From Asaia bogorensis (GTDB taxonomy: Bacteria; Pseudomonadota; Alphaproteobacteria; CACIAM-22H2), in NCBI GenBank assembly GCA_945892765.1, contig CAMDDQ010000001.1:40486-104485 (forward strand): a stretch of 64,000 nucleotides of DNA, read 5' to 3'. The notes beneath the pieces were generated by a model that searched no databases, was not told the DNA's origin, and was given only the letters and a program-made list of their open reading frames with translations. A program made the position numbers and the translations under genes. This document shows, piece by piece, positions 1 through 57,007 of this stretch. Each line of letters begins with the position of its first letter. Within the stretch, counting starts at the first letter, position 1.

Positions 1-137
1 GGCATATTGCAATGCACTTTGCCAAGCTGCATGGGGATTTTCCGCAAAATGCGATGCGCGATGAAGATGGTGCTCTGCGGAAAATTTTATCTTATTGAAA
101 AACAACAGTAATTTTTTACCCACACTTTCGTCTAGTT

Positions 138-153
138 TGGCATGGCGCATGCC
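138..153 (+). promoter_or_regulatory. sigma54-like -24/-12 promoter element (TGGCAT-N5-ATGCC)
   Basis: tttGGCATggcgcATGCc has GG and GC spaced 12 nt apart as in the TGGCAC-N5-TTGCW consensus. It lies about 70 bp upstream of the ATG at 218 inside a locally AT-rich stretch. Confidence 0.3.
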
Positions 154-196
154 TACCTACTTTAGTAGAGCACAACAGGCACATCTACTGAGTAGC
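153..196 (+). promoter_or_regulatory. pair of short palindromes CTAC-N3/4-GTAG (candidate operator sites) with a tandem CTACCTAC
   Basis: CTACTTTAGTAG at about 157-168 and CTACTGAGTAG at about 185-195, between the sigma54-like element and the AAGGAG RBS at 204-209. Confidence 0.3.
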
Positions 197-217
197 ATGC
201 GATAAGGAGTACTTCTA

Positions 218-853
218 ATGAAGCTTCTGCTCATCCACCCGGCGACCGCGACCCGCTCGGTTCTGTCCCACGCCCTCGGCAAGTTGTGGCGCGAGGCGGT
301 GGTGGCCGAACGCGACACCGCCGGGCCGGCGCCGGGCGCCGAGGAGCCGGGCATGATCGTGGTCGATGCCCCGTTATGCGGGAAGATGAAGGCCGCCGAT
401 CTTCGCCTGTTGTGCCGCGCCGGCACCGCCGCCCCCGTGGTCTTGCTCTCCACTGTCGTGGATTTGAGCTTTGTCATCGCCGCGTTCGACCGCGGCATGG
501 CCGGTGTCGCGCCCAAATCCATCCCGGTGGCGGCCATGGTTCAGGCGTTTCGCCTCATCGCCTCGGGTGAACGATTCGTCCCGGCATCCGTGCTCGCCGC
601 CGTGCTCCCGCTGGGCGGCGACCGCGGCGCGGAGACACCCACGCTCGACCGCCTCACCCCGCGCGAACGCGAAGTGCTCGGCCTGCTGCTCGAAGGCGGC
701 TCGAACAAGGCGATCGCCCGCACGCTCAGTCTGACCGAAGCCACGGTCAAAGCCTACATGATGACGCTGTGCCGCAAACTGGGCGCGCGCAACCGCGCCC
801 ATGCCGTGCGCATCGCCGTCCAAAACGGCTTCGCCGCCGCCGCAGCGGCCTGA
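218..853 (+). CDS. LuxR/FixJ-family response regulator with an atypical receiver domain and a C-terminal HTH_LuxR
   Basis: The REC fold has the phospho-Asp position (MIVVDAP), LLST and a Lys, but no N-terminal acidic pair (LLLIHPA). The C-terminus carries the LTPREREVLGLLLEGGSNKAIARTLSLTEATVKAY LuxR helix-turn-helix. AAGGAG lies 8 nt upstream. Confidence 0.8.
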   Translation: MKLLLIHPATATRSVLSHALGKLWREAVVAERDTAGPAPGAEEPGMIVVDAPLCGKMKAADLRLLCRAGTAAPVVLLSTVVDLSFVIAAFDRGMAGVAPKSIPVAAMVQAFRLIASGERFVPASVLAAVLPLGGDRGAETPTLDRLTPREREVLGLLLEGGSNKAIARTLSLTEATVKAYMMTLCRKLGARNRAHAVRIAVQNGFAAAAAA

Positions 854-924
854 AGTCCGCCGGGGCCGCGTCGCCCCAACCCGCACCAATTTCCCGTTAG
901 GGCGAGGAGGCACCTCATACCCAT

Positions 925-955
925 CAAGCGATCGAGGGTGTGAGGGCCTCCCCCC
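925..955. terminator. imperfect GC hairpin between convergent genes (possible bidirectional terminator)
   Basis: GGTGTGAGGG-cctcc-CCCTCACC lies between the response-regulator stop (853) and the priA stop (966). There is no U-run. Confidence 0.2.
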
Positions 956-965
956 TCACCTTCAC

Positions 966-3221
966 CTACATGAAGCTGTAAGGGTCCACGTCCACTTCGA
1001 TCTTCACGCCGGGCTTGATCTTGGTCGAATCCAGCCATTGGCGCAGGATCGCCTGGAGGTTCGCGGCCTTGCCGGTCTTGAGCAGGAGCCGGAAGCGGTG
1101 ACGCCCGCGCAGCAGCGATAGCGGGGCAGCGGCAGGGCCCAACACCCTGACGCCTTTGATCCGCGGCGCGTTTTTGGCGAGCGCGCGGGCGGCGGCTTCG
1201 GAATCCGCCGCCGCCGGCGCCGACACCACGATAGCGGCCAGCCGGCCGAAGGGCGGCAGCAGGCGGTCGCGCCGGTCCTCCGCCTCGCTCGCCATGAAGC
1301 GGTCGCGGGCGCCCGCGGCCAGCGCCTGCGTCACCGGGTGTTGCGGCAGATAGGTCTGGAGATAGACGCGGCCCGGGTGTTCGGCGCGGCCAGCCCGTCC
1401 CGCCACCTGGTGCAGAAGCTGGAAGGTCCGTTCCGCCGCGCGCAGATCGCCGCCGGCCAGCCCCAAATCCGCATCGACCACGCCGACCGTGGTGAGCAGC
1501 GGGAAATGATGGCCCTTCGCCATCACCTGCGTGCCGACCAGGATGTCGATCTCGCGTGCCTGCATCCGATCGACCAAGGCCTCGGCCTCGCGCGGGCTGG
1601 TCACGGTGTCGCTGGTCATGATCGCGATGCGGGCCTGGGGCCAGGCCGCGGCGGCTTCCTCGGCAACCCGCTCCACGCCGGGGCCGCAGGCGATCAGGCT
1701 GTCCTCGGCCCGGCAATGCGGGCAGAGGCGTGGCAGCGGCTGGCTTTCCCCGCAATGATGACAGGCCAGCCGCCCGGCCGCGCGATGTTCCACCAGCCAG
1801 GCCGCGCAATTGGCGCAGCGCATCCGATGGCCGCAGCCCCGGCACAAGGTCAGCGGCGCGTAGCCGCGGCGGTTGAGGAACAACATCGCCTGCTCGCCCT
1901 GTTCCAGCGCCTCTTGTACCGCCGTCCGCAGGACCGGGGACAGCCAATGCCGGCGCGGCGGCGGATGGCGGCGCAGATCGACGATCGCCACCTGCGGCAT
2001 CTGCGCCCCGCCATGGCGGTCGGCGAGCACCAGCCGCGTGTACCGCCCTTCCTCGACATTGGTCAGCGTCTCCAGCGACGGCGTCGCCGAGGCCAGCACC
2101 GCCGGGACCGCGGCGAGCCGCGCCCGCACCACCGCCATGTCGCGGGCGTGGTAGATGACGCCCTCCTCCTGCTTGAAGGCGGCTTCGTGTTCCTCGTCCA
2201 CGACGATGACCCCCAGCGCCGCCAGCGGCAGGAACAAGGCCGAACGCGCGCCCACCGCCACGCGGGCGTGGCCGGCGGCGATGGCATGCCAGGTCGCCCG
2301 CCGCACCGCCGGCGTCAGGTCCGAATGCCACACCGCCGGATCGGCCCCGAAGCGGCGGCGAAACCGCTCCAGCCATTGCGCCGACAACGCGATTTCCGGC
2401 AGCAGCACCAAGGCCTGCCGCCCCCGCCTTAGGGCCTCGGCAATCGCCTCGAAATACACCTCGGTCTTGCCCGAGCCGGTCACGCCATCGAGCAGCGTCA
2501 CCGAAAACCCGCCATCACCCACCCGCCTCCGCAGCGCCGCCGCCGCCTCTTCCTGCGCGGGCGACAGGGATGGCGCCGGCGGCAAGCCATTGACGCCCGT
2601 TGGCCCCCACACCGCCACCGCCGGTTCCAGCGGCGTGGCCTCGATCAGACCGGCATCGACCATGCCGTGGACGACCGCGCCGCTCACCCCGGCCGCCTTG
2701 GCCAAGGCCGCGGACGACCACGGGCCGGGTTGGTTTAGCCTCGCCAACACGCGGTGCCGCGCCGGCGTAAACCGCGCGCCGGCGGGCGGAGGCTCAACCA
2801 GCCCGTAGACGATGCGCGGGGCCGGCGGGTGCAGGATCGTGGGTGTGTTGATCGCCATGCGCAGCACCTTGCCGCGCGGCGTCAGCGTGTAGGCGGCCAC
2901 CCAATCAATCAGCCGGCACAGATCGGCGGGCAGCGGCGGCAAGTCGAGCTTTTCCAGAACCGGCTTGAGGCGCGCGCCGTCCACGGGCTCGGAATCCGGC
3001 GTCGCTTGCGCCCACACCACGCCGATTCCGCGGGTTTTTCCCAAAGGCACGGCGACGATGTCGCCCGGCTTCAGCGCCATCCCTTTGGCTGATGGATCGT
3101 CGGTCCCGGGAAGCGGAAGATAGTCGAAAGTCCGGTCCACTGGCACCGGCAGCAACACCGCCACGCGATGGGTCGATACGCGCGATCCGTCGGGGGGCGA
3201 AGTGGCGCGGGCGGCGGGCAT
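966..3221 (-). CDS. priA: primosomal protein N' (replication restart helicase PriA)
   Basis: Walker A GSGKTEVY, DEEH box and two CxxC zinc-finger pairs (CRGCGHRMRCANC / CHHCGESQPLPRLCPHC) in a 751-aa protein. Confidence 0.9.
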   Translation of the reverse strand: MPAARATSPPDGSRVSTHRVAVLLPVPVDRTFDYLPLPGTDDPSAKGMALKPGDIVAVPLGKTRGIGVVWAQATPDSEPVDGARLKPVLEKLDLPPLPADLCRLIDWVAAYTLTPRGKVLRMAINTPTILHPPAPRIVYGLVEPPPAGARFTPARHRVLARLNQPGPWSSAALAKAAGVSGAVVHGMVDAGLIEATPLEPAVAVWGPTGVNGLPPAPSLSPAQEEAAAALRRRVGDGGFSVTLLDGVTGSGKTEVYFEAIAEALRRGRQALVLLPEIALSAQWLERFRRRFGADPAVWHSDLTPAVRRATWHAIAAGHARVAVGARSALFLPLAALGVIVVDEEHEAAFKQEEGVIYHARDMAVVRARLAAVPAVLASATPSLETLTNVEEGRYTRLVLADRHGGAQMPQVAIVDLRRHPPPRRHWLSPVLRTAVQEALEQGEQAMLFLNRRGYAPLTLCRGCGHRMRCANCAAWLVEHRAAGRLACHHCGESQPLPRLCPHCRAEDSLIACGPGVERVAEEAAAAWPQARIAIMTSDTVTSPREAEALVDRMQAREIDILVGTQVMAKGHHFPLLTTVGVVDADLGLAGGDLRAAERTFQLLHQVAGRAGRAEHPGRVYLQTYLPQHPVTQALAAGARDRFMASEAEDRRDRLLPPFGRLAAIVVSAPAAADSEAAARALAKNAPRIKGVRVLGPAAAPLSLLRGRHRFRLLLKTGKAANLQAILRQWLDSTKIKPGVKIEVDVDPYSFM

Positions 3222-3310
3222 GGGTTAGACTCTGCGGAAGCGGAGGCGGTTTTCCCCGTCCTCTTATAGCGCCGGATCGGCGCGTACGGCACGACGATCG
3301 AGCAAGGACG

Positions 3311-4072
3311 ATGGCCAGCGATCCCGAAAAGATAACCAAGGCCCCGACCGCTGCGGACATGGCCGCCGCCGATGTCGCGGTCTATCTGCGCCGGCACCCG
3401 GATTTCCTGGACAAAAACCCCGAGATTCTGGCCGCGATGCTGCCGCCCGCGCGGCGCGAGGGCGACGGCGTGGTCGATTTACAGCGCGTGATGGTCGAAA
3501 AGCTCCGCGCCGAGATCGATCGGCTCCGTTCGGCCGAACACGAGCTGGTCTCGCTCGGCCGCAACAACATGCACCATCAGGGCCGCGTCCATGCCGCCGC
3601 ACTCGCGCTGCTGGGCGCCACCACGCTCGAACACCTGATCGAACTTGTCGGCACCGATCTCGCCGTCGATCTGGACGTGGACGCCGCCACCTTGTGTTTC
3701 GAGGCGCCGCCGCCCGCGGGCGAAGCCCGCTCGACTCCGGATTCCGGGCGGGCGCCGCCCCCCGACGGCGTTGCCTGCCGGGGTCTGCGCCTCGTGCCGC
3801 GCGGCGCCGTCAAACGCCTGCTCGATGGCAAATCCATCGTCCTGCTCGCCGACGAACCTGGCGACAAGGACCTGTTCGGCGAGGCCGCCAGCCTGGTCCG
3901 GTCCCAGGCCCTGATCAGCATCGAACCGCGGCGCGGCGCCCCCTTCGGCATCCTGGCGCTGGGCAGCCGCCATGCCGAGAAATTCCACCCCGGCCAGGGC
4001 ACCGAGCTGCTAGCCTTCCTCGGCCGCGTCGCCGAGCACTGCATCCGGTCATGGCTGGACCGCACGACCTGA
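3311..4072 (+). CDS. DUF484 family protein (conserved partner of xerC)
   Basis: N-terminus MASDPEKITKAPTAADMAAADVAVYLRRHPDFL, sitting immediately upstream of and overlapping xerC. Start taken at M74 of the ORF-track frame. Confidence 0.75.
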   Translation: MASDPEKITKAPTAADMAAADVAVYLRRHPDFLDKNPEILAAMLPPARREGDGVVDLQRVMVEKLRAEIDRLRSAEHELVSLGRNNMHHQGRVHAAALALLGATTLEHLIELVGTDLAVDLDVDAATLCFEAPPPAGEARSTPDSGRAPPPDGVACRGLRLVPRGAVKRLLDGKSIVLLADEPGDKDLFGEAASLVRSQALISIEPRRGAPFGILALGSRHAEKFHPGQGTELLAFLGRVAEHCIRSWLDRTT

Positions 4073-5016
4073 GCGAATTCCTTCCGAACCCCGAAACCGC
4101 GGACGCGGTCGCCGGCTGGCTCGAATGGCTGGCGACGGAACGCCGCGCCTCCCGCCACACTCTTTCCGCCTATCGCCACGACCTGCTCGCCTTCCTCGGC
4201 TTCATGGGTGGACATCTGGGCAGCGCCCAGTCCCCGGCCGATCTGGCGCTTCTCCGCACCGGCGATTTCCGAGCGTTCCTCGCCCGCCGCGCCGGCAAAG
4301 GCCTGACCGCCGCGACCAATGCCCGCGCGCTGTCGGTCCTGCGTTCGTTTTTTCGCTGGCTCGACCGCAACGGCCACGGCAAATGCGCCGGCCTCGGTGG
4401 ACTGCGCTCACCCAAGTTGCCGCGATCGGTGCCGCGCCCGTTGACCGTGGACGACGCGCGCAACGCGGTCGATCAGGTCGGCGATCTCAGCGACGAACCC
4501 TGGGTGGGTTTACGCGATACCGCGCTGCTTTGCCTGCTCTATGGATGCGGCCTGCGTATCGACGAGGCGTTGTCATTGAACCGCAGCGACATCGCGCCCC
4601 TGCTCCAGGGCGCGGACAGCCTGATCGTGCTCGGCAAAGGCCGTAAGCAGCGCATGGTCCCGGTTCTGCCCGCCGTGCGCGAGGCGCTGGCCGCCTATCT
4701 CGCTGTCTGCCCCCATGCCGCCGGCGTCACCGCGCCGGTGTTCTTCGGCATGCGCGGGAAACGCCTGCACGCCGGCATCGTGCAGAAACGGGTGCGAGAA
4801 CTGCGCGGCCTCATCGGCCTGCCCGACCGGGCCACGCCACACGCGCTGCGCCACAGCTTCGCCACACATCTGCTGGCCGCTGGCGGCGATCTGCGCGCCA
4901 TCCAGGAACTGCTCGGCCACGCCTCGCTGTCGACAACACAGCGCTACACCGAAATCGACGAAACCCAATTGCTCGCCGTCTACGACAAGGCGCATCCGCG
5001 AGCCCGTCGGGCGTAG
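4051..5016 (+). CDS. xerC: tyrosine recombinase XerC
   Basis: Carries HALRHSFATHLL and the LGHASLSTTQRYTEID catalytic Tyr motif. Start MAGPHDLSEF chosen by the usual XerC N-terminus. Confidence 0.9.
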   Translation: MAGPHDLSEFLPNPETADAVAGWLEWLATERRASRHTLSAYRHDLLAFLGFMGGHLGSAQSPADLALLRTGDFRAFLARRAGKGLTAATNARALSVLRSFFRWLDRNGHGKCAGLGGLRSPKLPRSVPRPLTVDDARNAVDQVGDLSDEPWVGLRDTALLCLLYGCGLRIDEALSLNRSDIAPLLQGADSLIVLGKGRKQRMVPVLPAVREALAAYLAVCPHAAGVTAPVFFGMRGKRLHAGIVQKRVRELRGLIGLPDRATPHALRHSFATHLLAAGGDLRAIQELLGHASLSTTQRYTEIDETQLLAVYDKAHPRARRA

Positions 5017-5573
5017 CCCGGCTGGGTTGGAATCAGCAAGGGGCAGTAGGGAAAGAAATGTGGGGGCCGCTTGGTCCCCACACCCCCAATAGTCCCGGGC
5101 AGGCCAGCTCCTCCGGCGCCTGCCTCGGACAATTCACGGCTTAGCGGGCTGAAGCCGGCAGTCCCGACCACAGCTCCACATCGTCGCGCTATACCCACCC
5201 GGAACACGCCGAATTTGAAGCTGTCGGCCGTGCGATAGGCGATGATCACGTTGAAGGGGAATTCCTGGCCGGTAAGGTCTTCCTTCAACACCTTGAAGAC
5301 GAGCCGGTTGCCCACAGGCTGGATGCGATTGTCGATCAGATGGTCGGTGTCGCCGTCCCAACGCACCCAATAGCCGAGATTGCTGCGCTGCAGCAGCAAA
5401 TTGCCCCAGGGTTTGGCGATGACAAAGGTGGCGAGCGGCTGATCGCCGTGCAGATCGATTTCGCGAACGATCTCGGCGGCCTCCGGCCGAATGGCGAGCG
5501 GCGCCAGGATCGCGCCTTCAACGCTCAACGTCTCGCTCCAGCCTGTGGCCGGAACGAGGAACGCTAACAACAT
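4980..5573 (-). CDS. hypothetical exported protein
   Basis: Signal-like N-terminus MLLAFLVPATGWS and alternating beta-strand-like sequence. The C-terminal ~45 residues are low-complexity and overlap the xerC 3' end, so the true stop is uncertain. Confidence 0.4.
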   Translation of the reverse strand: MLLAFLVPATGWSETLSVEGAILAPLAIRPEAAEIVREIDLHGDQPLATFVIAKPWGNLLLQRSNLGYWVRWDGDTDHLIDNRIQPVGNRLVFKVLKEDLTGQEFPFNVIIAYRTADSFKFGVFRVGIARRCGAVVGTAGFSPLSRELSEAGAGGAGLPGTIGGVGTKRPPHFFPYCPLLIPTQPGYARRARGCALS

Positions 5574-5698
5574 GAAAAAACAGGCAAATCCAAATTTGCA
5601 CGTACACGGCCTTCGGTCGTGTTCCGCTTGGATCGTGCGCCAACAGCGCCCCCCGGTTATCCCCCACTTTTTTTCCCGGCAAACAAAGCCGCGCCACT

Positions 5699-7402
5699 CT
5701 AATGCGGCGCCGCCGTTTGGCCAACCCGCGCCGCGCCGATGGTTCGCGGACGCATCGGTCCCATGGCCGGGGTGTGGAAGACGTGGCAGGCCACGCAGGT
5801 CGAAGGCACCAGCGCGGTCACGTCTTCACCGCCATGGCACCCACGGCAATTGGCGATGCCCGGTAGCAGGACGTCGGAACTGGCAACCGATTTGGGGGCG
5901 GCGTGGCAATCGACGCAGCCGGTGTTCTTGTGTTTGCTGTGATCGAATTTGCCCTTGGGCATCCAGGTCGTCGCCACCAGCACCGGCTTGACCCGGAAAT
6001 TGGGTCTCTCGTCGAGCCTGGTCGTCCGTTCGACGAAGTGGCAGCTCCCGCATATGCTCTTGCCGTAAACGATCTCGATGGTCGCATCGGCACGGCTGCG
6101 CGCCCAGGCCAGCGCTTCGGCGCGCGCCGCTTCCTCTAGCGGCGAGCCGGGACGGCGGCGCACGACGGCCGGCGCTTCGGGATCCTCGAAGCCGCCTTCG
6201 AGGGCGACGCGGCCGTAGAAATCGTTGAGAACATTGGCGACTTCGTCCGGTTTGCCATGCGGCACTTCGCGGTCGAGCGCGCGGGCCTCGAACTTCAATT
6301 TGTGGCAATCGCGGCAATCGGTCTCCATGTCCACCGCGCGCATGCCCACGCCGCCGGTCTCCGGCCGGTGGCAATCATTGCAGACCATTTTCTGCAACCC
6401 GGTGGGGCCCCGCACGCCGGCGTCCACCAAATGTTTGTCGTGCGGGAAGATCAGGTTGGAATTCTCCTTCAGCGCGGGATCGCCGACCGGCAGCCGCACC
6501 AATGTCCGGGTCGCCGGGTCGGTCACCACCGACGGCCGAAATTCGGGGTGATCGCGGCCGAAATCGCTGACATTGATCAGCTTGGTCGTAGGCACCATCG
6601 TGGTCAGCCGCACATGGCAGTCGTCGCACAAGGCCTGCGCCGTCTGGATCGCCGGCTGCCGGCCTTGATGTTCCTTGTGGCAAGACGCGCACCGGGTTTC
6701 TTCCAGGGCCGGCAGACGCACCGTCTTCACGTCGGCGTGGTGGGCGATGTCGTTGTGACAGGTTAGGCAGGCCTGGTCCTGGACCATGATGAACGGCCGC
6801 TCGTGGCAGGTTGTGCAATCAGTCGCGAAATATTTGTGCACACCGGAGATTTCGCCGGATTCCCATGACTTGTCCGCCGCGATCGGCATCGCGGTCATGC
6901 TCTTGTGAAGGTCGGGGATGAAGAAGGCGGCGACCGGAAGGATAAGAAAGAGCAACAGCACGGTGGCAAAGGCGGCCCAAGACAACACACGTTTGCTGAT
7001 CGCGGCATCACCCAAGCGGGCGTGGCTGCGTTGTGTCAGTTCAACGAGATCGTCGCCGAGCGGCTGCACCAGTTCGACGGTAACAGCGACGCCATAGCCG
7101 GGCGGCGCTTCCACGATTTCGATCTTGTAAGGACCGACGGCAATCGAGTCGCCTGGCTGGACGCGGCCGGAGTTGGCGGCGGCTCCGTTGATGGAGAGAT
7201 CGTTGGTGCCCACCGCGGAGACGTAGGACTGGCCGTCGCGCACATGCAGTTCGGCGTGGTCGAGCCCGATCCGCGGGTCGGGTAGATAGACTTCGTTCTT
7301 GGTGCCGCGGCCGATGCGAATGAATTCCACTGTGGCGTCTTGGTCGCGCCGGGAAACGCCACGATTGCCGCGCCGAGTCAGATAGCCGACCTGGACAAGC
7401 AC
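5699..7402 (-). CDS. FHA-domain / single-TM / decahaem cytochrome c fusion protein
   Basis: N-terminal FHA signature (TVEFIRIGRGTKNEVYLPDPRIGLDHAELHV), one TM (VLSWAAFATVLLLFLILPVAAFFIP), then ten CxxCH motifs (CTTCH, CLTCH, CASCH, CDDCH, CNDCH, CRDCH, CGSCH, CVDCH, CRGCH, CVACH). Confidence 0.8.
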   Translation of the reverse strand: MLVQVGYLTRRGNRGVSRRDQDATVEFIRIGRGTKNEVYLPDPRIGLDHAELHVRDGQSYVSAVGTNDLSINGAAANSGRVQPGDSIAVGPYKIEIVEAPPGYGVAVTVELVQPLGDDLVELTQRSHARLGDAAISKRVLSWAAFATVLLLFLILPVAAFFIPDLHKSMTAMPIAADKSWESGEISGVHKYFATDCTTCHERPFIMVQDQACLTCHNDIAHHADVKTVRLPALEETRCASCHKEHQGRQPAIQTAQALCDDCHVRLTTMVPTTKLINVSDFGRDHPEFRPSVVTDPATRTLVRLPVGDPALKENSNLIFPHDKHLVDAGVRGPTGLQKMVCNDCHRPETGGVGMRAVDMETDCRDCHKLKFEARALDREVPHGKPDEVANVLNDFYGRVALEGGFEDPEAPAVVRRRPGSPLEEAARAEALAWARSRADATIEIVYGKSICGSCHFVERTTRLDERPNFRVKPVLVATTWMPKGKFDHSKHKNTGCVDCHAAPKSVASSDVLLPGIANCRGCHGGEDVTALVPSTCVACHVFHTPAMGPMRPRTIGAARVGQTAAPH

Positions 7403-7426
7403 GGTACTACTCCCGCTCCGAAATCG

Positions 7427-8257
7427 TTACCAGTAGAAGAAAACAGAGAAGACGTGGGTGGTCAGGGCCGCCAGAAGGCCGACCGACAACGGCACGTGGA
7501 AAATCAGCCAAATTTCCAGGAATGCACGGTATTGCACGTCGCGCCGCGCGCGACCGACGAGGTCGTCCTTACGGCTCAACAACGTCAGCAACTTACGAAC
7601 GGCGACGGCGTCTTCAACCGAAACCTTGGTCGCCAGTTGCTTGATCCTGGCCAACGCGCGGGCCGTCGGGCAATTGGGATCGCGCCCGGAAAGCTGACGC
7701 CACACCGACCCGCCGATCTGCGTATTGCGGCCGGAATCGAGCACCGCCCGCGTGATCTCGTCGGGCAATCCCATGGAGGCATCGCGGCTTTCCGAATCGA
7801 GCGCGGCGATGCGGGTGAAAATCTCGGTCAGCGTCAGGCCGCCGCGGTTCTGCGTCATCAACGCGGGATACCTTTGGTAGAAAAACACGCCGAACACCCC
7901 GGACAGGATGACCAGCATCATCAAGGTGTAGGCAAGCGTATGCACATTCCAGCCGAACTGGAACCCGGTGTGCAGCGTGGCCACGACGATCAGGGCGAGG
8001 CCGAGATAGACATGCGCCGAGAGCCAGCCCTGGAGCTTCGTTGGACCCAAATTGTACCGCCGCTTGCGCACGCCGAACCACATAAGCCAAAGGACCAAGA
8101 CCGCGCCGATCGTGCCCAGCACGTAGCCGAGCCAGGTGCCGCCATTGGGCGGGTCCATCGGGCTGTCGGCGGCATAGACGATCGCGGCCGCCAGGGCGCC
8201 CAGGACGGCCACCTTCAGATACCGGAAGTTGCGATAGACGAGATAGGATTGATGCAT
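7427..8257 (-). CDS. integral membrane protein, putative di-haem b-type cytochrome (~5 TM)
   Basis: Two TM helices each carry His-x13-His (SAHVYLGLALIVVATLHTGF and IFHVPLSVGLLAALTTHVF), the spacing used for bis-His ligation of two b haems in NarI/FdnI-like cytochromes. Confidence 0.55.
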   Translation of the reverse strand: MHQSYLVYRNFRYLKVAVLGALAAAIVYAADSPMDPPNGGTWLGYVLGTIGAVLVLWLMWFGVRKRRYNLGPTKLQGWLSAHVYLGLALIVVATLHTGFQFGWNVHTLAYTLMMLVILSGVFGVFFYQRYPALMTQNRGGLTLTEIFTRIAALDSESRDASMGLPDEITRAVLDSGRNTQIGGSVWRQLSGRDPNCPTARALARIKQLATKVSVEDAVAVRKLLTLLSRKDDLVGRARRDVQYRAFLEIWLIFHVPLSVGLLAALTTHVFSVFFYW

Positions 8258-8280
8258 CGTCTTTTGGCTGTTGGCCGACC

Positions 8281-10680
8281 TTAGAGACCCCGGTTAGAAA
8301 GCGAGAAGAACTCGTCCGGGCTAACACGAATGGCGGCGCCGGTCGGACAGGCCCGCACGCAGGACGGTCCGCCTTCGATGCCTTTGCACATGTCGCATTT
8401 CACCGCCATCTTGCGTTTGTTGGGGTCCTTTTTCTTGCCGTGGGTGGCTTCCCAGTCCTCGCCGGGTCCATGGCCCAGCCCAAACAACATCCAAGCCAGC
8501 AAACCCGGCTTGGCCGGCGGCTCCGCCGACATGTGGATGACGTGATAGGGACAGTTGCGCTCGCAATTGCCGCAGCCAATGCATTTTTCGTCGATGAACA
8601 CCTCGCCATTCGGCGAACGATGGATGGCGTCGGCCGGGCAGTCGGACATGCAGTGCGGATGTTCACAATGCCGGCACGACGTTGGCACATGGATCGAGGC
8701 ATAGGTCGGCCCAGCCTCGCGATCGAGCCGCGACACGCCGTGATGGGTCTCGGCGCAGGCCTTTTCGCAATTGTCGCACCGCACGCACAGCGATTCGTCG
8801 ATCAGCAGAACGTCAGTTGCCTCGCCCAACCCTTGATCGAGCAGGAACTGCATCAGGTTCGAGTGGTCGGGGCGGCCTTCCATGCGGACGTTTTCGACGA
8901 GCCGCGCTTGGAACCGAGCCTCGACCTCTACGCGCAACTCCGGCGAGCACTCGAGCAGGCCGCGAAAGGCGCCGCCGTCGATCTTTATGGCCTCCGTCGC
9001 CACCGCCGCCCGCACCGTGGCGGTGCGCCGGCTCTTGGTCAGCAGCGCCATTTCGCCGACATAGTGGCCAGCCGGAACATACGACAAAACCACGTCGCGG
9101 CCGCCCAGGCTGCGCGACACGGTCACCGACCCGCTGCGGATCAGATAGACGTTGTCGCCGACATCACCCTCCTTGATCAGCACGTCGCCCGCACTGAAGG
9201 ACTGGATGGTGGCCGTCCGCACGACATCGACGAGGTCGCGCTTGGAAACCTGCGGCGCCAGATGGGTCTGAACCTGGCGGATCATGGCGGTCTCGTCGAG
9301 AACACGTTTGGCCGCGGCGATCGAGCGAGTCAGCTTGATGACCTGCCTGCGCGGCGTCTCGATCAACACGCAATCGGCGCCCGCCACGACCGTCGCCGTG
9401 CGGCGGCGGCCGGAAATCAAACCCATCTCGCCGAAGAATTCGCCGGTCTTCAGCGTCACCTTGATCGCCGGGTTTTCGGCGCTGACCTGGACATCGACCG
9501 ACCCCGACAGGATCGAATAGAAGCTGTTGGAGTAATCGTTGCGCTTGAAAACGGTCTCGCCCTGCTTGGGCACATGGACGTCGCTGTCGAGCAGGAATTC
9601 TCGAAGCTGCAGCTTGGTCAGCGAGGAGAACATCGGCACGCGCTGTTGCACGCCTTCCAGGAACTGCGAGACCGTCACCCCTTGTAGGCCGGTGAGTTTT
9701 GCCTCAAGCAACGGCTCGTCGGCCGGCTTCACCTCATTCCCCAGGATGTACTCGATTACCTCATAGCCCTGGTTCATGCAGTGTTTGATTAGGGGATAAC
9801 CGGCCAGCGCGCCGATGATGTAAAGCCCCTTCACGTTCGATTCGTAGCTGTCGCTGACCCCCGGAACCGAGGCCGGATCGGCGTTGGGGAACACGATGCC
9901 GCAGGCTTCGACGAATTTGCGCGGCGGCAGGGCGCCAATACGAGCGATGACCCGGTGGCACTTGACCACCGCCTCACCCTCCGGGGTTTTCAGAAAAATG
10001 GCGCTGGGATCGGTCTCGACCTTAATGACCTTGGTGTTGAAATAACACTGGATGCGGCCGTCCTTGATGGCCGATTCGATCAGTGCGACGTTGCCCGCCT
10101 TGGCGCGGGCGAAATCGCCCATGACGTTGACGACGATGACCTCGTTCTGGGCGGCCAGCGCGATGGCGTTTTCGAGCCCGGCATCACCGGCGCCGATCAC
10201 AACGATGGTTTCGTCTTTGTATTCTTCTGGATCGTCGAGCTGGTACTGGACGTTGGGGCCGGTTTCGCCGGGTACGCCTAGGGTGCGGATATTGCCCTGC
10301 AATCCAATGGCGAGCACAACGGCATCGGCGGTGAGCGTTTGTTTGTTGGCGAGCGTGATCGTGAAGATCGCGCCGTCCTTCTTGATGCCCGCGACATCGG
10401 CGTTTTGGCGCAGGTTGAATTTCAACTCGCCGGTGCTTTTGTCCCAGGAACCGAGGATGGTTTCGCGGGCGCCTTCCTTGAATTGAAGATCGCTGCGCAG
10501 GGGCAGGACCTCCGGCGTCGCCATGACGTGTTTTTTCTTCTGATACTTGTAGATCGTATCGGAAAGATGGGTGGTGCGTTCGAGCAGGACATAAGACGCG
10601 CCGCGCTTGGCGGCACGCCCCGCCGCGCTTAATCCCGCCGGGCCCGATCCGACAATCGCGATCGCATAGTGTTCGGCCAT
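8281..10680 (-). CDS. NAD(P)/FAD pyridine-nucleotide-disulfide oxidoreductase fused to two cNMP-binding domains and multi-cluster 4Fe-4S ferredoxin domains
   Basis: GSGPAGLSAAG and VVIGAGDAGLENA Rossmann motifs; two CAP-type cNMP-binding segments (FGEMGLISGRRRTATVVA, VGEMALLTKSRRTATVRA); Cys clusters CVRCDNCEKAC, CRHCEHPHCMSDCP, CIGCGNCERNCP, CDMC...CVRACP. Confidence 0.8.
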   Translation of the reverse strand: MAEHYAIAIVGSGPAGLSAAGRAAKRGASYVLLERTTHLSDTIYKYQKKKHVMATPEVLPLRSDLQFKEGARETILGSWDKSTGELKFNLRQNADVAGIKKDGAIFTITLANKQTLTADAVVLAIGLQGNIRTLGVPGETGPNVQYQLDDPEEYKDETIVVIGAGDAGLENAIALAAQNEVIVVNVMGDFARAKAGNVALIESAIKDGRIQCYFNTKVIKVETDPSAIFLKTPEGEAVVKCHRVIARIGALPPRKFVEACGIVFPNADPASVPGVSDSYESNVKGLYIIGALAGYPLIKHCMNQGYEVIEYILGNEVKPADEPLLEAKLTGLQGVTVSQFLEGVQQRVPMFSSLTKLQLREFLLDSDVHVPKQGETVFKRNDYSNSFYSILSGSVDVQVSAENPAIKVTLKTGEFFGEMGLISGRRRTATVVAGADCVLIETPRRQVIKLTRSIAAAKRVLDETAMIRQVQTHLAPQVSKRDLVDVVRTATIQSFSAGDVLIKEGDVGDNVYLIRSGSVTVSRSLGGRDVVLSYVPAGHYVGEMALLTKSRRTATVRAAVATEAIKIDGGAFRGLLECSPELRVEVEARFQARLVENVRMEGRPDHSNLMQFLLDQGLGEATDVLLIDESLCVRCDNCEKACAETHHGVSRLDREAGPTYASIHVPTSCRHCEHPHCMSDCPADAIHRSPNGEVFIDEKCIGCGNCERNCPYHVIHMSAEPPAKPGLLAWMLFGLGHGPGEDWEATHGKKKDPNKRKMAVKCDMCKGIEGGPSCVRACPTGAAIRVSPDEFFSLSNRGL

Positions 10681-21985: not shown

Positions 21986-23759
21986 AAGGCCTCGATCTGG
22001 CCCTGGCGACCGCGCACCTCCACCAGGCCGATGGATGTGACGGGAAGATCGAGCTTTGACGCCTGCCGCGTGACCCCGCTCATCACGACCACGACATTGC
22101 CGGGCTTATCGATGGACTTGCCAAGCTGCTCCAGCCGGTTCGCGGTGTTCACCGTGTCGCCGACGATGGTGTAGTTGATGCGGCCGGGTGCGCCGATATT
22201 GCCGACGACCACGTCACCCGAATGCAGTCAGATGCGAATGCCCAAGGTCCCGCCCTCGCGCCCCATGGCCTCGGCGATGGCCAGTGCCGCGCGGCAGCCA
22301 CGGGCGGCATGGTCTTTCTGTTTCTCGGGCGCGCCCCAAAAGGCCATGACATCGTCGCCGATGAATTTGTCCACGGTGCCACTCTCGGCCTCGATGCAGG
22401 CGGTGATCAGCCCGAAATGTCGGTTGAGCAGCGGCGCGACCTCCGGCGCCGGGAGTTTTTCCGCCATCGTGGTGAACCCGGCGATGTCGGTGAACATCAC
22501 TGTGACGGTGCGTTCCTTCGACGGCATCGCACCCTTGGCCGCGTCCCATTCGCCATGGCCGACCAGTCGCTGCACCAGCTTCCTGGGGACATAGGTCTCG
22601 AACCAACGCAGCCCGACGACCATGGCGTTGAAGGCCTGGCCGGCGGCGTTCAGTTCCACGAACAGGGTACGGGGTAACCTTTCGACCGTATCGAGCGACA
22701 AATCGCTTACCCGCCTTGCGGCGATCGAAAGCCGGATCAGCGGCACGGTCAAATATCGGGAATAACCGTAAGCGACCAGCAACGAGACGAGCAGAACCGC
22801 GATCCCGGCGATCGCCGCCCAGCGCAGGCGTGTCAGTTCGTCGGTGATGTCGGTGGCCGCGAAATAGACTCCGACTTCCCAGGGCTTGTCGCTGTAACGG
22901 TCCAAGACGCGCGACAGCATGGCATATTGAATGCCCCCGGATTCGGCGAGCCGAATGCCGGTCTTTTCGATGAAGTCCCGGTCGAGCACGCCCAATTTCT
23001 GCGGGCGGTCAAAAGCCAGGAGAACCGGATCCCCGACCTCCGCGATCGTGGGCAGCAAATTCTCGCCGCGCGGCGGCCGGCGCGTCTGAAGAAGAGGATG
23101 GGCGAGGACCATGTGATGGTCGTAAAGAATGAAGGCCGTGCCTTTGAGGGTGCGCGCGGTGTCGTCGAGAATTTGCGAAAACTGGTCCACCTGGACGGTG
23201 CCACCAATAGCCCGACATAATTGCCGCCGATGCGAACCGGATAGCGAACATTGACCAGCACCTGATCGGCGGTTTCCGGCAGCACGATTTCGGCCCAATA
23301 CAGCCCCGTCCTGTCGCGCGCCGCGTCCATGGCGTTGCTGATGACCGGCATCTCCCGCACATCGATGACATCGAGAGCGACTCCATTCGGATGGCGAAGG
23401 GCCCGCAGCATCGAATTGTCGGTGCCGATGAGTACGAGCGAACGCACTTCGGGAGTCGCCGACAAGGCGCCGGCCTCGATCTGGCGGGCAAGGTGAATAA
23501 GCTGACTCTCCACTGGCCGCAGATATTGGTCGATCACGCTGACGATCTGCAGGCTCGCGGCTTCGGATTTGTCGCGCAGCAAGTCGATGGTATTGGTGCG
23601 GGCGCTCCAGAGGCCGAGCGCGAGGGCCGAAGCCACGGCAAGGAAGACGAGGCCGCCGAAGCCAAGCACCAATCCGGTGGCGATCTTGATCTCGGCCGAC
23701 GGGTGCGGCGCCTCGCCTTGTGCGGCCGGCGCGGCAATGGCGGGGGAGTGGCTTTTCAT
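21964..23759 (-). pseudogene. disrupted sensor adenylate/guanylate cyclase (dCache-like periplasmic domain, HAMP, class III cyclase)
   Basis: The reading frame switches near 23200-23215 (RIGGNYVGL in one frame, AIGGTVQVDQFSQILDD continuing in another). An in-frame TGA at 22228-22230 sits inside the catalytic domain (...GTLGIRI*LHSGDVVVGNIGAPGRINYTIVGDTVNTANRLE). Confidence 0.6.
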
Positions 23760-29109: not shown

Positions 29110-29492
29110 TGCGCGCTCGCGTTTTCGGGTTGATGGGGAGGCAAAACCGGCTTCGCCGGGAAAGACATCGGACGCACGCCCGCCCAGGCCGGCTTCGTGC
29201 AACGAAGCGGATGATGAGCCTATGGCCGCCTCCGACCGTAATTTGGCCGGCGGCGGCAGACTACTCCCAGGGTCGGGATCGGGTGATTGACGAGGCATTC
29301 TCGCGCACGTTCGTCGAGCCGCTACTTAACGTCGCGGTCGGACGGCCGTCAAGCGGTTCGGAAACGATTCGCGGCGGGCGACACAAAAAATTGAAGGGTG
29401 CGACTGAGGGGTCACTGTGGATGATTCGATCGCGTGCCCACAGACCGAGATTCGGCCGCCTATGTTTCGCCGAAAAGGCGGTATAGGCTGAG

Positions 29493-41801: not shown

Positions 41802-42314
41802 ATGGAATGTGTGCTGATCGCGCTGGGCACCAATCTCGGCGACCGGCTTGCTAATCTCGGCGCGGCCCTGCGCGGTCTCGACGGGCCGCTTCGCGCCATC
41901 GTCGCCTCCCCGGTCTACGAGACCGCGCCGCGTTATGTCGAAGACCAGCCGCCTTTCCTCAACATGGCGGCGCGCGCGGAGACGACCCTCGCGCCGCTCG
42001 ACCTGCTGGCCGCGCTCAAGGACATCGAACGGACGCTGGGACGCAAAGATGGCGTGCGCAACGGCCCGCGCCTCATCGACCTCGACATAATTTTCTACGG
42101 CACGCGCGTTCTGCGCCTGCCGGGGCTGACCATCCCCCATCCCAGGCTGGCGGAGCGCAGCTTCGTGCTGCGCCCGCTCGCCGATATCGCGCCCACTTGG
42201 CGGCATCCGGAGACGAGCGCGACGATGACCGAAATGTTGGCGCCCATCGCCGACGATCCCGGCGTGAGGCTGGCGACGCGGCAACTTGAGCGGATTGCGG
42301 CGAGCCAGGGCTAA
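41802..42314 (+). CDS. folK: 2-amino-4-hydroxy-6-hydroxymethyldihydropteridine pyrophosphokinase FolK
   Basis: MECVLIALGTNLGDRL...RLIDLDIIFYG HPPK signature. Divergent from folB. Confidence 0.85.
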   Translation: MECVLIALGTNLGDRLANLGAALRGLDGPLRAIVASPVYETAPRYVEDQPPFLNMAARAETTLAPLDLLAALKDIERTLGRKDGVRNGPRLIDLDIIFYGTRVLRLPGLTIPHPRLAERSFVLRPLADIAPTWRHPETSATMTEMLAPIADDPGVRLATRQLERIAASQG

Positions 42315-42778
42315 CGCGGCGGCGCGCGTGACGGGCCGAGAACGACGCTGTGTTCGCCCGCAGCCGATCCCAGAAGGATACGGTCCTGGGCAATGGACTT
42401 CACAGTCCAGCCTTCGATGTCGCTGCCCTCGGGCACCCGCAGGACGCGGCCAGTATAGCCTTCCCGCAGCATCACAAAACGCCGGTCGCCGGACGTCACC
42501 GCGCCGGTCAGCCGATACCGTCCGATGGTGGCGCCGTCGGGCGCAACTTGACCAGCCTGGCTTGGCGCCGGCGCCGCTCGCCGCGCCGCAACGAAAAGCG
42601 GGCGGCGGAGCGATTCGGCGAGCTCTTCGAAAGGCGGCAGAACCGGCAGTGCGGCGCCTTCGGCCCCCTGACCCGGCTGGCGCCCCGAGGTCGGCGCGGA
42701 TTCGTCAATCGGCAGCACCCAGGGAAGGCCGCCGAGGATGATGAAGACGGCCATCGCCGCCGCCAGCCTTCCGCCCAC
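42311..42778 (-). CDS. hypothetical membrane-anchored protein
   Basis: N-terminal TM then a soluble domain with no confident family. It lies upstream of the prepilin peptidase on the same strand. Confidence 0.4.
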   Translation of the reverse strand: MGGRLAAAMAVFIILGGLPWVLPIDESAPTSGRQPGQGAEGAALPVLPPFEELAESLRRPLFVAARRAAPAPSQAGQVAPDGATIGRYRLTGAVTSGDRRFVMLREGYTGRVLRVPEGSDIEGWTVKSIAQDRILLGSAAGEHSVVLGPSRAPPR

Positions 42779-43483: not shown

Positions 43484-44827
43484 ATGACGATGTATGGCAA
43501 GTTTTCCGCTTGGGTAGCCGCCGTGGTTACGGCCTGGGCGTTGTTTGGGGCGGTGCCCGGCCTTACCGCCACGCTACCGCATTTCGCGGAGGATTCGCAT
43601 CTAGGTGTGACCTCTTGCGCCGGCAGCACTTGCCATGGCGCCGTCGAGCCCTGGAAGGATTCCACGGTTCTCCAAAACGAGTACATCACCTGGCAGCGCC
43701 AGGACAAACACGCCAAAGCCTATCAGGTTCTGCTCAACGAACGGTCGCAGCGCATCGCGAAGAATTTGGGCCTGCCCAACGCCCATACCGCAGAAATTTG
43801 CCTCGACTGCCATGCCGACAACCCCGCCGCGAACAAACGCGGGCGCCAGTTCCAGGTGAGCGACGGCGTCGGTTGCGAAGCCTGTCACGGCGGCGCCCAG
43901 CGCTGGCTCGGCATTCACATCGCCGGGTCCGGCAGCCACCAGGATAATGTCACCGCCGGCATGTATCCGACGGAAAACGCCGTCGATCGCGCCAAGCTCT
44001 GCGTGTCCTGCCATTTCGGCGACACGCGTAAGTTCGTCACCCATCGAATCATGGGCGCCGGCCATCCGCGCATGAGTTTCGAGCTCAATACCTTCACCGC
44101 GATCCAGCCCGCCCATTACCGTGTCGACCTCGACTACCCGAAGCGCAAACGCGTCTTCACCGGCATGCAGACCTGGGCCATCGGTCAGTCCATCGCCTTG
44201 TCCGAGACCCTGGACGCGTTGATGGATGCCAAGCGCGGTCGCGACGGCATTTTCCCCGAACTCGTGTTGTTCGATTGCCACAGCTGCCACCACCCGATGA
44301 GCAACCTGCGCTGGGAAGCGCGCGCCAGCACCGGCCTTGGGCCAGGCGTGGTGAAATTCAACGACGCCAACGTCATCATGCTGCGTATCATCGCCGACCG
44401 TGTTGATCCGGAACAGGGCAAGGCGGTTCGTGCGCTCGGTGTCGCCCTGCACACGGCTTCGACCCAGGGGCACGATGCTATGCTCAAGGTGGCAAAGGAC
44501 CTGCGCGAGGTCAGCGGCAAGCTGACCGACAAATTCGCCGCCCACGTCTTCGGCAAGGACGACATGACCGCCCTGCTGACCGGCGTGGTCAAGGAAGGAT
44601 TGAGCGGGGAATATATCGACTACTCCGCCGCCGAACAGGCGACCATGGCGCTCGGCTCGATCATCACCGCGATGCGCGCCGGCGGCATCATCGACGAAAA
44701 GCAGCAAACCTCGCTCAGCGCAGCCGTGGATAAATGCTACGCCGCGGTGGCCAAGGACGAGGAATATCAACCCAGGACCTTCATTGCCGCGCTTCAATTG
44801 GTCCAGGCCGCGATCCCGAGCTTCTGA
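43484..44827 (+). CDS. secreted pentahaem c-type cytochrome
   Basis: Signal peptide plus CAGSTCH, CLDCH, CEACH, CVSCH, CHSCH. Confidence 0.75.
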   Translation: MTMYGKFSAWVAAVVTAWALFGAVPGLTATLPHFAEDSHLGVTSCAGSTCHGAVEPWKDSTVLQNEYITWQRQDKHAKAYQVLLNERSQRIAKNLGLPNAHTAEICLDCHADNPAANKRGRQFQVSDGVGCEACHGGAQRWLGIHIAGSGSHQDNVTAGMYPTENAVDRAKLCVSCHFGDTRKFVTHRIMGAGHPRMSFELNTFTAIQPAHYRVDLDYPKRKRVFTGMQTWAIGQSIALSETLDALMDAKRGRDGIFPELVLFDCHSCHHPMSNLRWEARASTGLGPGVVKFNDANVIMLRIIADRVDPEQGKAVRALGVALHTASTQGHDAMLKVAKDLREVSGKLTDKFAAHVFGKDDMTALLTGVVKEGLSGEYIDYSAAEQATMALGSIITAMRAGGIIDEKQQTSLSAAVDKCYAAVAKDEEYQPRTFIAALQLVQAAIPSF

Positions 44828-56835: not shown

Positions 56836-57007
56836 GAGCCGTTCAATACGCCGCCGATCCTCGCCACGCAATTCGTTCCCTATTGCGGACCCCGCATTTC
56901 CTCACGCCACGTGGGGATGTATCGGACATGACACGCCGCTGACCGAGTGTTAAGAGCCTAGGCCGAAATCCAACCCTATTTCACTTCCTTGAGCGTAGTT
57001 TTAGGAC

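Follow-up and report, generated by a model that had tools for sequence, protein, structure and literature searches.

The window analysed here, a stretch of 64,000 nucleotides from Asaia bogorensis (assembly GCA_945892765.1, contig CAMDDQ010000001.1, positions 40,486 to 104,485), contains three adjacent genes, designated A, B and C, whose products may together form an electron conduit across the cytoplasmic membrane. Gene A is an unbroken open reading frame (ORF) of 799 amino acids (8281..10680, minus strand), with a GC content at the third and second codon positions (GC3 0.79, GC2 0.44) that is typical for real genes in this 65%-GC window. As deduced from the ORF, from Pfam and NCBIfam comparisons and from its homologues, it encodes a cytoplasmic flavo-iron-sulfur (FeS) protein, lacking a signal peptide, in which Pfam families define, from N- to C-terminus, an FAD/NAD(P)H module, two cyclic nucleotide-binding (CNB) domains, CNB-A and CNB-B, and a domain with four predicted [4Fe-4S] clusters. 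An earlier note on this DNA, made from the sequence alone, had described the same order of domains, which is thus borne out. Gene order in related bacteria indicates that the product of gene A is not a free-standing oxidoreductase but belongs to a conserved module of three genes, A, B and C, of which it forms the cytoplasmic subunit. Gene A is an ordinary and intact member of a large family that is annotated in databases and mentioned in the literature, without characterisation, so the interest rests with the family rather than with this particular locus.

In comparisons with NCBIfam equivalog models, every score of gene A fell far under the corresponding cut-off; the N-terminus was nearest to YpdA, thioredoxin reductase (TrxR) and lipoamide dehydrogenase, the middle part to CRP, and the C-terminus to AegA, HydN, NrfC, DmsB, ArrB and DsrO. 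Likewise, comparisons with the PDB did not retrieve any solved structure with the architecture of gene A, and only separate pieces found a match: Bdr/YpdA (7a7b), the tandem CNB-A/B of PKG and of PKA regulatory subunits (PKA-R), and HycB of formate hydrogenlyase. The AlphaFold2 (AF2) model of the complete protein was of moderate quality, with a predicted local distance difference test (pLDDT) of 73 overall and below 50 in the FeS part.

The flavoprotein module comprises residues 1–330 (9691..10680, minus strand) and is YpdA/TrxR-like in Pfam and Foldseek comparisons. Pyr_redox_3 and Pyr_redox_2 match residues 6–305 with 114.6 and 100.6 bits (cut-offs of 30 and 26.1), and the two dinucleotide-binding motifs are GSGPAG (residues 11–16), for FAD, and GAGDAG (163–168), for NAD(P)H, such that gene A shows both the two GxGxxG motifs and the above-threshold profile that define flavoproteins with two dinucleotide-binding domains. 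In an alignment of 68 full-length homologues of 59–66% identity, to which the conservation values for gene A refer unless a wider set is named, all sequences share G11, G13, G163 and G165, and at least 90% of them keep G16; at position 168, the last of the NAD(P)H motif, Ala occurs 44 times and Gly 24 times. The best Foldseek match of the module was Bdr/YpdA 7a7b (TM-score of 0.87, normalised to the target), followed by ferredoxin/flavodoxin-NADP+ reductases (FNRs) of the TrxR type, from Bacillus, Chlorobaculum and Rhodopseudomonas, and by TrxRs.

Residues 1–330 do not contain any CxxC motif, and Cys 212, 241, 260 and 301 stand singly. The Cys of the Bdr motif GxGPCG is substituted by Ala in gene A and is variable in the family, which has the consensus GSGPxG. 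We therefore rejected two candidate identities for the module, thioredoxin reductase (TIGR01292; 60.5 bits against a cut-off of 343.45, and no CxxC) and the bacillithiol disulfide reductase YpdA/Bdr (TIGR04018; 130.6 bits against 339.9, with the Bdr Cys missing). Because it lacks both CxxC and the Bdr Cys, the module does not appear to be a disulfide reductase, and its features fit a ferredoxin-reductase-like role in feeding electrons to the fused FeS domain. Past the second Rossmann strand, the family displays a motif, VNRR(D)EFARAK, that resembles the NADPH 2'-phosphate motif HRRDxFRA of E. coli TrxR. R186 is found in 63 of the 68 homologues, and gene A contains V186-M187 (10120–10125, minus strand) in place of the Arg-Arg of the family. 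Val-Met is also present in P0001, a 97%-identical protein from a metagenome-assembled genome (MAG) belonging to another assembly; this rules out a sequencing error and indicates a real, lineage-specific change, which may have shifted the preference of the enzyme from NADPH towards NADH.

The Pfam family cNMP_binding (PF00027) matches gene A in two copies, with 130.3 bits against a cut-off of 27.5. CNB-A spans approximately residues 345–470 (9271..9648, minus strand), as delimited by Pfam and by PDB alignment to CNB-A of PKG and PKA-R, and CNB-B approximately residues 471–600 (8881..9270, minus strand), from the second Pfam copy, at 493–577, and PDB alignments; indeed, a single alignment to PKG and PKA-R covers both domains, over residues 369–577, with E values down to 1e-22. 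The phosphate-binding cassettes, FFGEMGLISGRRRTATV in CNB-A (residues 415–431; 9388–9438, minus strand) and YVGEMALLTKSRRTATV in CNB-B (residues 540–556; 9013–9063, minus strand), match those of Plasmodium PKG position by position. Both contain the signature of Gly-Glu, for the ribose 2'-OH, followed by Arg-(Thr/Ser)-Ala, for the phosphate (G417-E418 and R427-T428-A429; G542-E543 and R552-T553-A554), in agreement with the proposal of the earlier note that the Arg and Thr-Ala residues are kept. G417, E418, R427 and A429 in the first cassette, and G542, E543, R552 and T555 in the second, are invariant; A554 is conserved in at least 90% of the homologues, and both T428 and T553 have Ser as an alternative in the family. 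Because R-T-A is shared by cGMP- and cAMP-binding sites, the sequence does not reveal the preferred nucleotide.

The ferredoxin domain (residues 620–799; 8281..8823, minus strand) was delimited by its 16 Cys and by comparison with Pfam, NCBIfam and HycB structures. Families of 4Fe-4S dicluster proteins match approximately residues 625–787, with Fer4_7 (47.8 bits) and Fer4_11 (38.8 bits) above their cut-offs, and the closest FeS structures are those of HycB (7z0s_B, 7qv7). None of the named equivalogs considered (HydN, NrfC, DmsB, ArrB, DsrO, AegA) was reached, with, for instance, 52.8 bits against 260 for HydN and 66.2 against 1003 for AegA. The Cys residues are arranged in four groups, 632/635/638/642, 669/672/677/681, 700/703/706/710 and 762/765/774/778, with the motifs, in this order, CxxCxxCxxxC, CxxCxxxxCxxxCP, CxxCxxCxxxCP and CxxCx8CxxxCP. 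Four ferredoxin-type groups with 16 Cys predict four [4Fe-4S] clusters, as in HydN, HycB and NrfC, and the spacing hence corresponds to a known cluster type, as anticipated. All 16 Cys are invariant in the 68 homologues, and approximately 98% are kept in a set of 52 distant representatives of 31–53% identity, which includes ten short forms devoid of the flavin module. Unlike nucleotide sensing (see below), the predicted FeS wire is universal in the family.

Genes A, B and C are on the same strand, separated by gaps of 23–24 nt, and gene B starts 23 nt past the stop codon of gene A. Gene B (7427..8257, minus strand) codes for a protein of 276 amino acids with five predicted transmembrane (TM) helices and a cytoplasmic helical insert of around 100 residues; its AF2 model (pLDDT 86) consists of five long hydrophobic helices, with the insert between the fourth and the fifth. 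Five His residues, H82, H96, H106, H254 and H268, are invariant in 45 homologues. H82 and H96 are located on TM3 (helix 72–97), and H254 and H268 on TM5 (helix 214–274), each pair with a spacing of i,i+14. Both helices run from the inside to the outside, according to the positive-inside rule and the RKRRY stretch after helix 2, and in the model H82 with H254, and H96 with H268, could provide the ligands of two haems, one close to each membrane face. Neither an above-threshold profile for di-haem cytochromes b (Ni_hydr_CYTB, DUF4405 or Ferric_reduct) nor a specific structural match was found for gene B. Below threshold, Ni_hydr_CYTB, the family of FdnI and HydC, of the cytochrome b561 type, matched 42 of the 45 homologues, DUF4405 matched 9 and Ferric_reduct 8, the latter marginally (best E value of 0.033). 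These sub-threshold matches and the invariant His pairs lead us to consider gene B a putative di-haem cytochrome b.

Gene C (5699..7402, minus strand) codes for a protein of 567 amino acids in which an N-terminal cytoplasmic domain similar to forkhead-associated (FHA) domains is followed by a single TM helix and, on the periplasmic side, a decahaem cytochrome c, and it matches the Pfam families FHA, Yop-YscD_cpl, and Cytochrome_C7 and c3. Its number of CXXCH motifs, ten, is exactly conserved in 51 of 52 complete homologues. The FHA match (29.5 bits against a cut-off of 20.7, residues ~28–98) is accompanied by a match to the YscD-type FHA family, which is not of the phosphothreonine type. G31-R32 are invariant in gene C homologues, but where the phosphothreonine pocket (S-x-x-H) has its Ser, the window protein has Gly and the family consensus Ala. 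The domain may serve to dock A or B rather than to read phosphorylation.

A large protein database contained over 6800 matches to gene A, of which the best 120 are all of approximately 800 amino acids, with the same set of Pfam families, and are named only as cyclic nucleotide-binding domain-containing proteins. The nearest relative among the matches listed is 97% identical and comes from a Rhodospirillaceae MAG. Counting one genome per species, full-length relatives occur in at least 579 species of Alpha-, Beta- and Gammaproteobacteria, including Lysobacterales, Rhodanobacteraceae, Tahibacter, Burkholderiales, Steroidobacteraceae, Nisaea and SAR116. We examined gene order in 82 related loci, evaluating each position in those with enough sequence. 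Gene B lies directly after A in 56 of 75 loci and gene C follows in 59 of 66, and an HbpS-like protein is present in 44 of 55, in most cases beside a protein of around 600 amino acids without known function and an LVIVD/multihaem protein of around 1300. In a rearranged betaproteobacterial branch (L046, at 16–9972, L052, L062, L069, L075, L076 and L081), the order is C, HbpS-like, unknown, LVIVD/multihaem, c554-like and A; in these rearranged Burkholderiales loci, A is followed by a DUF5916/CBM9-like protein of 762 amino acids, and tblastn did not detect a B homologue.

The c554-like cytochrome of the relatives also has a counterpart in the window, at 43484..44827 (plus strand). This is a periplasmic multihaem protein of 447 amino acids (Pfam Cytochrome_C554), with four CXXCH motifs and one CX4CH, that is 58% identical to a cytochrome of around 440 amino acids adjoining A-B-C in relatives, although here it is 33 kb away. 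It adjoins a prepilin-peptidase-like gene (42847–43395, minus strand; Pfam Peptidase_A24), and in Nisaea (L002) the same cytochrome and peptidase genes flank A-B-C, along with genes for type II secretion, which suggests that a rearrangement has split the cluster in the genome of the window. A minimal marine version (L007) consists of A-B-C and the c554-like cytochrome gene only, with the latter convergent with C. Also around the cytochrome gene of the window are an ORF of 155 amino acids without Pfam match (42311–42778, minus strand) and an alginate-lyase-like gene (44784–46199, plus strand).

An exhaustive search among representatives at 50% identity yielded 928 clusters at E ≤ 1e-30, with full-length proteins down to approximately 31% identity. 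Among these, P0303 (locus L085) shares only 32% identity with gene A, yet genes for a B-like protein and a decahaem protein follow it downstream. About ten clusters, with proteins of 446–511 amino acids, matched only residues ~345–795, and therefore contain the two CNB domains and the four-cluster domain without the flavin module. The single short form whose context was read is P0355 (L083), a complete gene in a 13-kb contig, which is followed by a gene for a B-like protein of 233 amino acids, in which both His pairs with i,i+14 spacing recur, and then by that for a TM-anchored heptahaem cytochrome. As judged from these relatives, the conserved core is a CNB-ferredoxin protein with a cytochrome b and a multihaem cytochrome c, to which the proteobacterial branch has added the flavin module and the FHA-like domain of C. 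The CNB domains had been considered an insertion between the flavin and FeS parts; the flavin-less relatives point instead to the FAD module as an N-terminal addition to the CNB-ferredoxin core.

The earlier note had also related gene A to the only class III nucleotide cyclase gene of the window, at ~21964–23759 (minus strand), which it described as disrupted. The disruption was confirmed: the gene codes for a membrane sensor and a catalytic domain, with Guanylate_cyc (PF00211) matches split over two pieces, and has two lesions. Through a frameshift near ~23190, the sensor part, which shares its frame with 22833..23759, is out of frame with the catalytic part, and an in-frame TGA (22228–22230, of the GGA to TGA type) occupies the position of the expected Gly of IGLHSG; this could reflect a true pseudogene or an assembly error. 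In tblastn searches of the 64 kb, neither another cyclase domain, using the repaired domain as query, nor a second CNB protein was found, and Pfam scans of most other window genes revealed no cyclase and no CNB domain. No tie to gene A was found: the broken cyclase belongs to a cobalamin-synthesis region (CobQ, CobD, CbiX, CbiC, CbiD and methylases) at a distance of ~11 kb, it shows no synteny link to gene A, and only 3 of the 82 related loci contain a cyclase within 10 kb of the gene A homologue. These three are situated one or two genes 5' of A on the same strand, and comprise a CHASE2-cyclase (L016, 148–2328), a GAF-GAF-PAS-cyclase (L063, 4770–7061) and a short cyclase beside a hybrid histidine kinase (L068, 6718–7797). 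Given this low frequency, the differing sensor types and the unrelated genes in between, we rejected these cases as evidence of a cyclase dedicated to gene A.

A terminator-like hairpin with a T-run (5691..5710, minus strand) at the stop codon of gene C suggests that the A-B-C transcript ends there, although it is a consensus match only and such sites are as numerous in the region as expected by chance. Further downstream, a small ORF without Pfam family (4980..5573, minus strand) yielded 13 tblastn matches, including the window itself, and its homologues are thus downstream of gene C in 12 related loci (L002–L005, L009, L011, L012, L015, L018, L022, L034 and L036), with 27–50% identity and ~2.6–3.4 kb past the end of gene A; in Alphaproteobacteria, the cluster may include this ORF as a fourth gene. 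The 390-bp region 5' of gene A contains neither CRP (TGTGA-N6-TCACA) nor FNR/FixK (TTGAT-N4-ATCAA) boxes, and a sigma-70 scan upstream of the gene did not yield any candidate on the coding strand. Elsewhere in the window, the only zero-mismatch CRP site is the perfect palindrome TGTGACCCAGATCACA (46448–46463, plus strand), between the alginate-lyase-like gene and amine-oxidase/cyclopropane-fatty-acid-type genes, with none upstream of A-B-C. The FNR/FixK-type motif, allowing up to two mismatches, was found 23 times in the whole window, against 11.6 expected and a maximum of 18 in 100 shuffles; these matches are mostly intragenic, with zero in the A-B-C promoter region. Other genes of the window include a second large flavo-FeS protein of 1163 amino acids (57005–60496, plus strand), with Pyr_redox_2 and a weak match to 4Fe-4S domains of the dihydropyrimidine dehydrogenase type, and a fusion of 747 amino acids between a SAM-methyltransferase and an ATP-grasp domain of the D-Ala-D-Ala-ligase type (27082–29325, minus strand), at the edge of the cobalamin cluster.

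The interpretation that we favour, to which we assign a probability of roughly 0.55, is that A-B-C is a transmembrane electron conduit of three subunits in which the product of gene A, on the cytoplasmic side, serves both electron input and regulation, with its CNB tandem tuning electron export. NAD(P)H would reduce the FAD of the TrxR-like, ferredoxin-reductase-type N-terminal module of A, and electrons would then pass along the four [4Fe-4S] clusters of its HydN/HycB-like C-terminal domain, which would dock at the cytoplasmic face of B. The two putative b-haems of B would carry them across the membrane, from that ligated by H82 and H254, near the cytoplasm, to that ligated by H96 and H268, near the periplasm. 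The ten c-haems of the membrane-anchored C would in turn hand the electrons to periplasmic partners, such as a c554-like cytochrome and, in many relatives, also the HbpS-like and the LVIVD/multihaem proteins. The absence of CxxC and of the Bdr Cys from the flavin module fits this transfer to FeS clusters, and we favour the outward direction because of the low potential of NAD(P)H, because outward movement runs with the membrane potential and because no energy-coupling subunit was seen.

The PKA-R/PKG-like CNB tandem would bind cAMP or cGMP and alter the geometry or the association of the flavin and FeS modules, and a second messenger would thereby tune electron export by acting on the protein itself. 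In PKA-R, PKG and Epac, nucleotide binding re-packs the helices flanking each β-barrel; lying between the donor and the wire, the CNB tandem is an obvious candidate for a switch, which could act on the distance from flavin to cluster or on docking to B. Control by cAMP or cGMP of the electron input into gene A, as predicted in the earlier note, is therefore plausible. It is also conceivable, although we would lean against it, that A-B-C is the first respiratory-type transmembrane conduit to be switched by a cyclic nucleotide at its electron-input subunit, and not through transcription, with periplasmic or extracellular acceptors for the exported electrons, in hundreds of proteobacterial species.

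Several observations weigh against the proposed cyclic nucleotide-tuned export. The two papers that noted the cluster both call its function unknown. Within the window, there is no intact cyclase, and the common downstream partners of relatives (the HbpS-like and LVIVD proteins) and the ~600-amino-acid protein are absent. The low pLDDT of the gene A model makes it a poor guide to the geometry between domains, including that from FAD to cluster and the CNB interfaces. Two of the three putative NADPH 2'-phosphate arginines have been lost in gene A and in its 97%-identical relative, making donor specificity uncertain, and the cassettes are degenerate in many distant relatives in spite of the persistence of the operon, as detailed below.

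Electrons might flow in the reverse direction, from periplasmic sources such as Fe(II), sulfide or extracellular donors through C, B and the FeS domain to FAD and NAD(P)+, which would supply the cell with reducing power, with the CNB tandem gating uptake. Homologous clusters do exist in Fe(II)-oxidising Gallionellaceae, namely the 'NHC' cluster of Ferrigenium, whose authors propose inward flow to quinone (10.64898/2026.01.22.701106), and the 'Forkhead-associated protein' with 10 CXXCH motifs found by Hoover et al. in 27 of 87 genomes of iron oxidisers (PMC9900912), and multihaem cytochromes are reversible wires (PMC9900912). However, inward transfer would oppose the membrane potential in a system where we did not see an energy-coupling (proton-translocating) subunit, most of these donors are far more positive than NAD(P)+, and the family is widespread in heterotrophs (Lysobacterales, Tahibacter, Nisaea); we thus regard the reverse flow as unlikely.

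Equally doubtful, in our opinion, is that the conduit is real but its CNB tandem is not a sensor of cAMP or cGMP, being instead a structural spacer, a dimerisation scaffold or a sensor of another ligand. The CNB fold is used for non-nucleotide ligands in CooA, NtcA and CprK. In the set of 52 distant representatives, the strict Gly-Glu...Arg signature was found in both cassettes of 26 proteins, in one cassette of 14 and in neither of 12, with the full length kept in those that have lost it; P0303, with degenerate cassettes, retains its B and cytochrome genes. Neither is there a conserved cyclase neighbour, and that of the window is a pseudogene or is misassembled. Cyclic nucleotide control, therefore, cannot hold for the whole family, and the maintenance of the operon in L085 suggests that the CNB tandem also has a structural role that is independent of nucleotides. 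Nevertheless, the cassette contact residues are invariant in both domains of the 68 sequences at approximately 60% identity, which is hard to explain without a nucleotide, and canonical cassettes are kept by flavin-less relatives at 33–38% identity, with at least one in each of the ten short forms. To our knowledge, the CNB-fold proteins with non-nucleotide ligands lack these cassette residues. Nucleotide sensing would thus be a feature of many branches of the family, but not of all, and the branch of gene A keeps both sites perfectly.

Less probable still is that A works mainly as a sensor, integrating the NAD(P)H/NAD(P)+ ratio, the FeS redox state and cyclic nucleotide levels, and signalling to C through its FHA-like domain or to other proteins, with C obtaining its electrons elsewhere, for example from the quinone pool via B. 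The module does contain two domains of regulatory type, CNB in A and FHA-like in C, the superfamily of B includes quinone-reactive cytochromes b of the FdnI/HydC type, and a quinone link was considered by the Ferrigenium authors. Against this, four strictly conserved [4Fe-4S] clusters are the mark of a wire rather than of a sensor, their fusion to a flavin module of ferredoxin-reductase type completes a path from the donor to the membrane, and the FHA domain of C is devoid of the conserved Ser of the phosphothreonine pocket. Finally, although YpdA/Bdr are the best NCBIfam and structural matches of the flavin module, we consider it very improbable that this is a low-molecular-weight-thiol disulfide reductase (YpdA/Bdr) or a thioredoxin reductase through which the FeS and CNB domains regulate thiol redox homeostasis, in view of the score far below the YpdA cut-off (130.6 against 339.9 bits), the lack of CxxC, the variable residue, here Ala, at the Bdr Cys site, and conserved partners that are cytochromes and not thiol proteins.

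If conduction tuned by cyclic nucleotides is confirmed, a common and unstudied proteobacterial module would tie cytoplasmic NAD(P)H to periplasmic multihaem cytochromes, bypassing the quinone pool, under the control of cAMP or cGMP. It would constitute a new class of output for bacterial cyclic nucleotide signalling, whose outputs have so far been mostly transcription factors, channels and a few enzymes, and would provide extracellular or periplasmic electron transfer with an additional point of entry. Such a module would be relevant for redox balancing, for the cycling of iron and nitrogen in soils and oxygen-deficient waters, and for bioelectrochemistry.

In the literature, we found neither a relevant characterised fusion of CNB domains to an oxidoreductase nor a link for the LVIVD/multihaem protein, and a CNB protein reported in Magnetospirillum could not be tied to the gene A family. 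The module is nevertheless reminiscent of several known systems in its parts or in outline. As in NOX enzymes, electrons would move from cytoplasmic NAD(P)H to FAD and to two trans-membrane b-haems, and, as in the Tmc/Hmc complexes of sulfate reducers, a cytoplasmic FeS protein would be combined with a membrane cytochrome b and a periplasmic multihaem cytochrome c. We rejected its assignment to either NOX/FRD or Tmc/Hmc, because the Ferric_reduct matches are marginal, the flavin module is of the TrxR class and not of the FNR class, and HdrD-like CCG domains are missing; additionally, we know of no CNB domain in either group. FdnH/FdnI and HycB/HydN/NrfC share with it the 16-Cys domain for four [4Fe-4S] clusters and the pairing of an FeS wire with a (here putative) di-haem b protein of the Ni_hydr_CYTB type, but the FeS domain of gene A is cytoplasmic, without a Tat signal and fused to flavin and CNB domains, and B has five helices and a large insert. 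The flavin module has the two-Rossmann fold of the TrxR-type FNRs and of YpdA/Bdr, and lacks a redox-active CxxC; it differs in the absence of the Bdr Cys and in being fused, via two CNB domains, to its presumed FeS acceptor. Likewise, the tandem CNB-A/CNB-B with canonical cassettes resembles that of PKA-R and PKG, although the output of gene A would be redox instead of kinase activity.

The closest resemblance is to two gene clusters described in preprints. Elbon et al. (2024 preprint, bioRxiv 10.1101/2023.11.21.568154) reported a ptdABCDEFG cluster in Alphaproteobacteria from marine oxygen-deficient zones, which they flag as expressed, whose function they state to be unknown and for which they suggest a porin-cytochrome role, with ptdA-D coding for a pentahaem cytochrome, a porin, an FAD oxidoreductase and a tetrahaem cytochrome. 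Compared by description and gene order alone, A-B-C matches PtdE-PtdF-PtdG, with a CNB and 4Fe-4S protein, a ferric-reductase-like TM protein and a decahaem cytochrome in the same order; a PtdA-like c554-type cytochrome is also present in the window, but 33 kb from A-B-C. The two differ in that the FAD/NAD(P) oxidoreductase of ptd is a separate protein (PtdC), whereas in gene A it is fused to the CNB-FeS protein; in the description of two clusters for ptd, against four, with 16 Cys, in gene A; and in the porin and tetrahaem genes, none of which adjoins A-B-C in the window. The 'NHC' cluster of Ferrigenium straubiae, which was expressed in all conditions tested and has no known function, contains an FHA-bearing 'nonahaem' cytochrome, a protein with five TM helices and a [4Fe-4S] protein (2026 preprint, 10.64898/2026.01.22.701106). 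It resembles A-B-C in its multihaem cytochrome, which combines a cytosolic FHA domain with a single TM helix and is encoded beside 5-TM and [4Fe-4S] proteins, and the Gallionellaceae protein listed by Hoover et al. shares with C the FHA name and the 10 CXXCH motifs; the Ferrigenium NHC differs in the nine haems counted, in that CNB and FAD are not mentioned, and in the inward flow to quinone that is favoured. In all, our results add to the picture in these preprints four clusters instead of two, a putative di-haem b partner with assigned ligands, a CNB-ferredoxin core and cassettes whose conservation depends on the clade.

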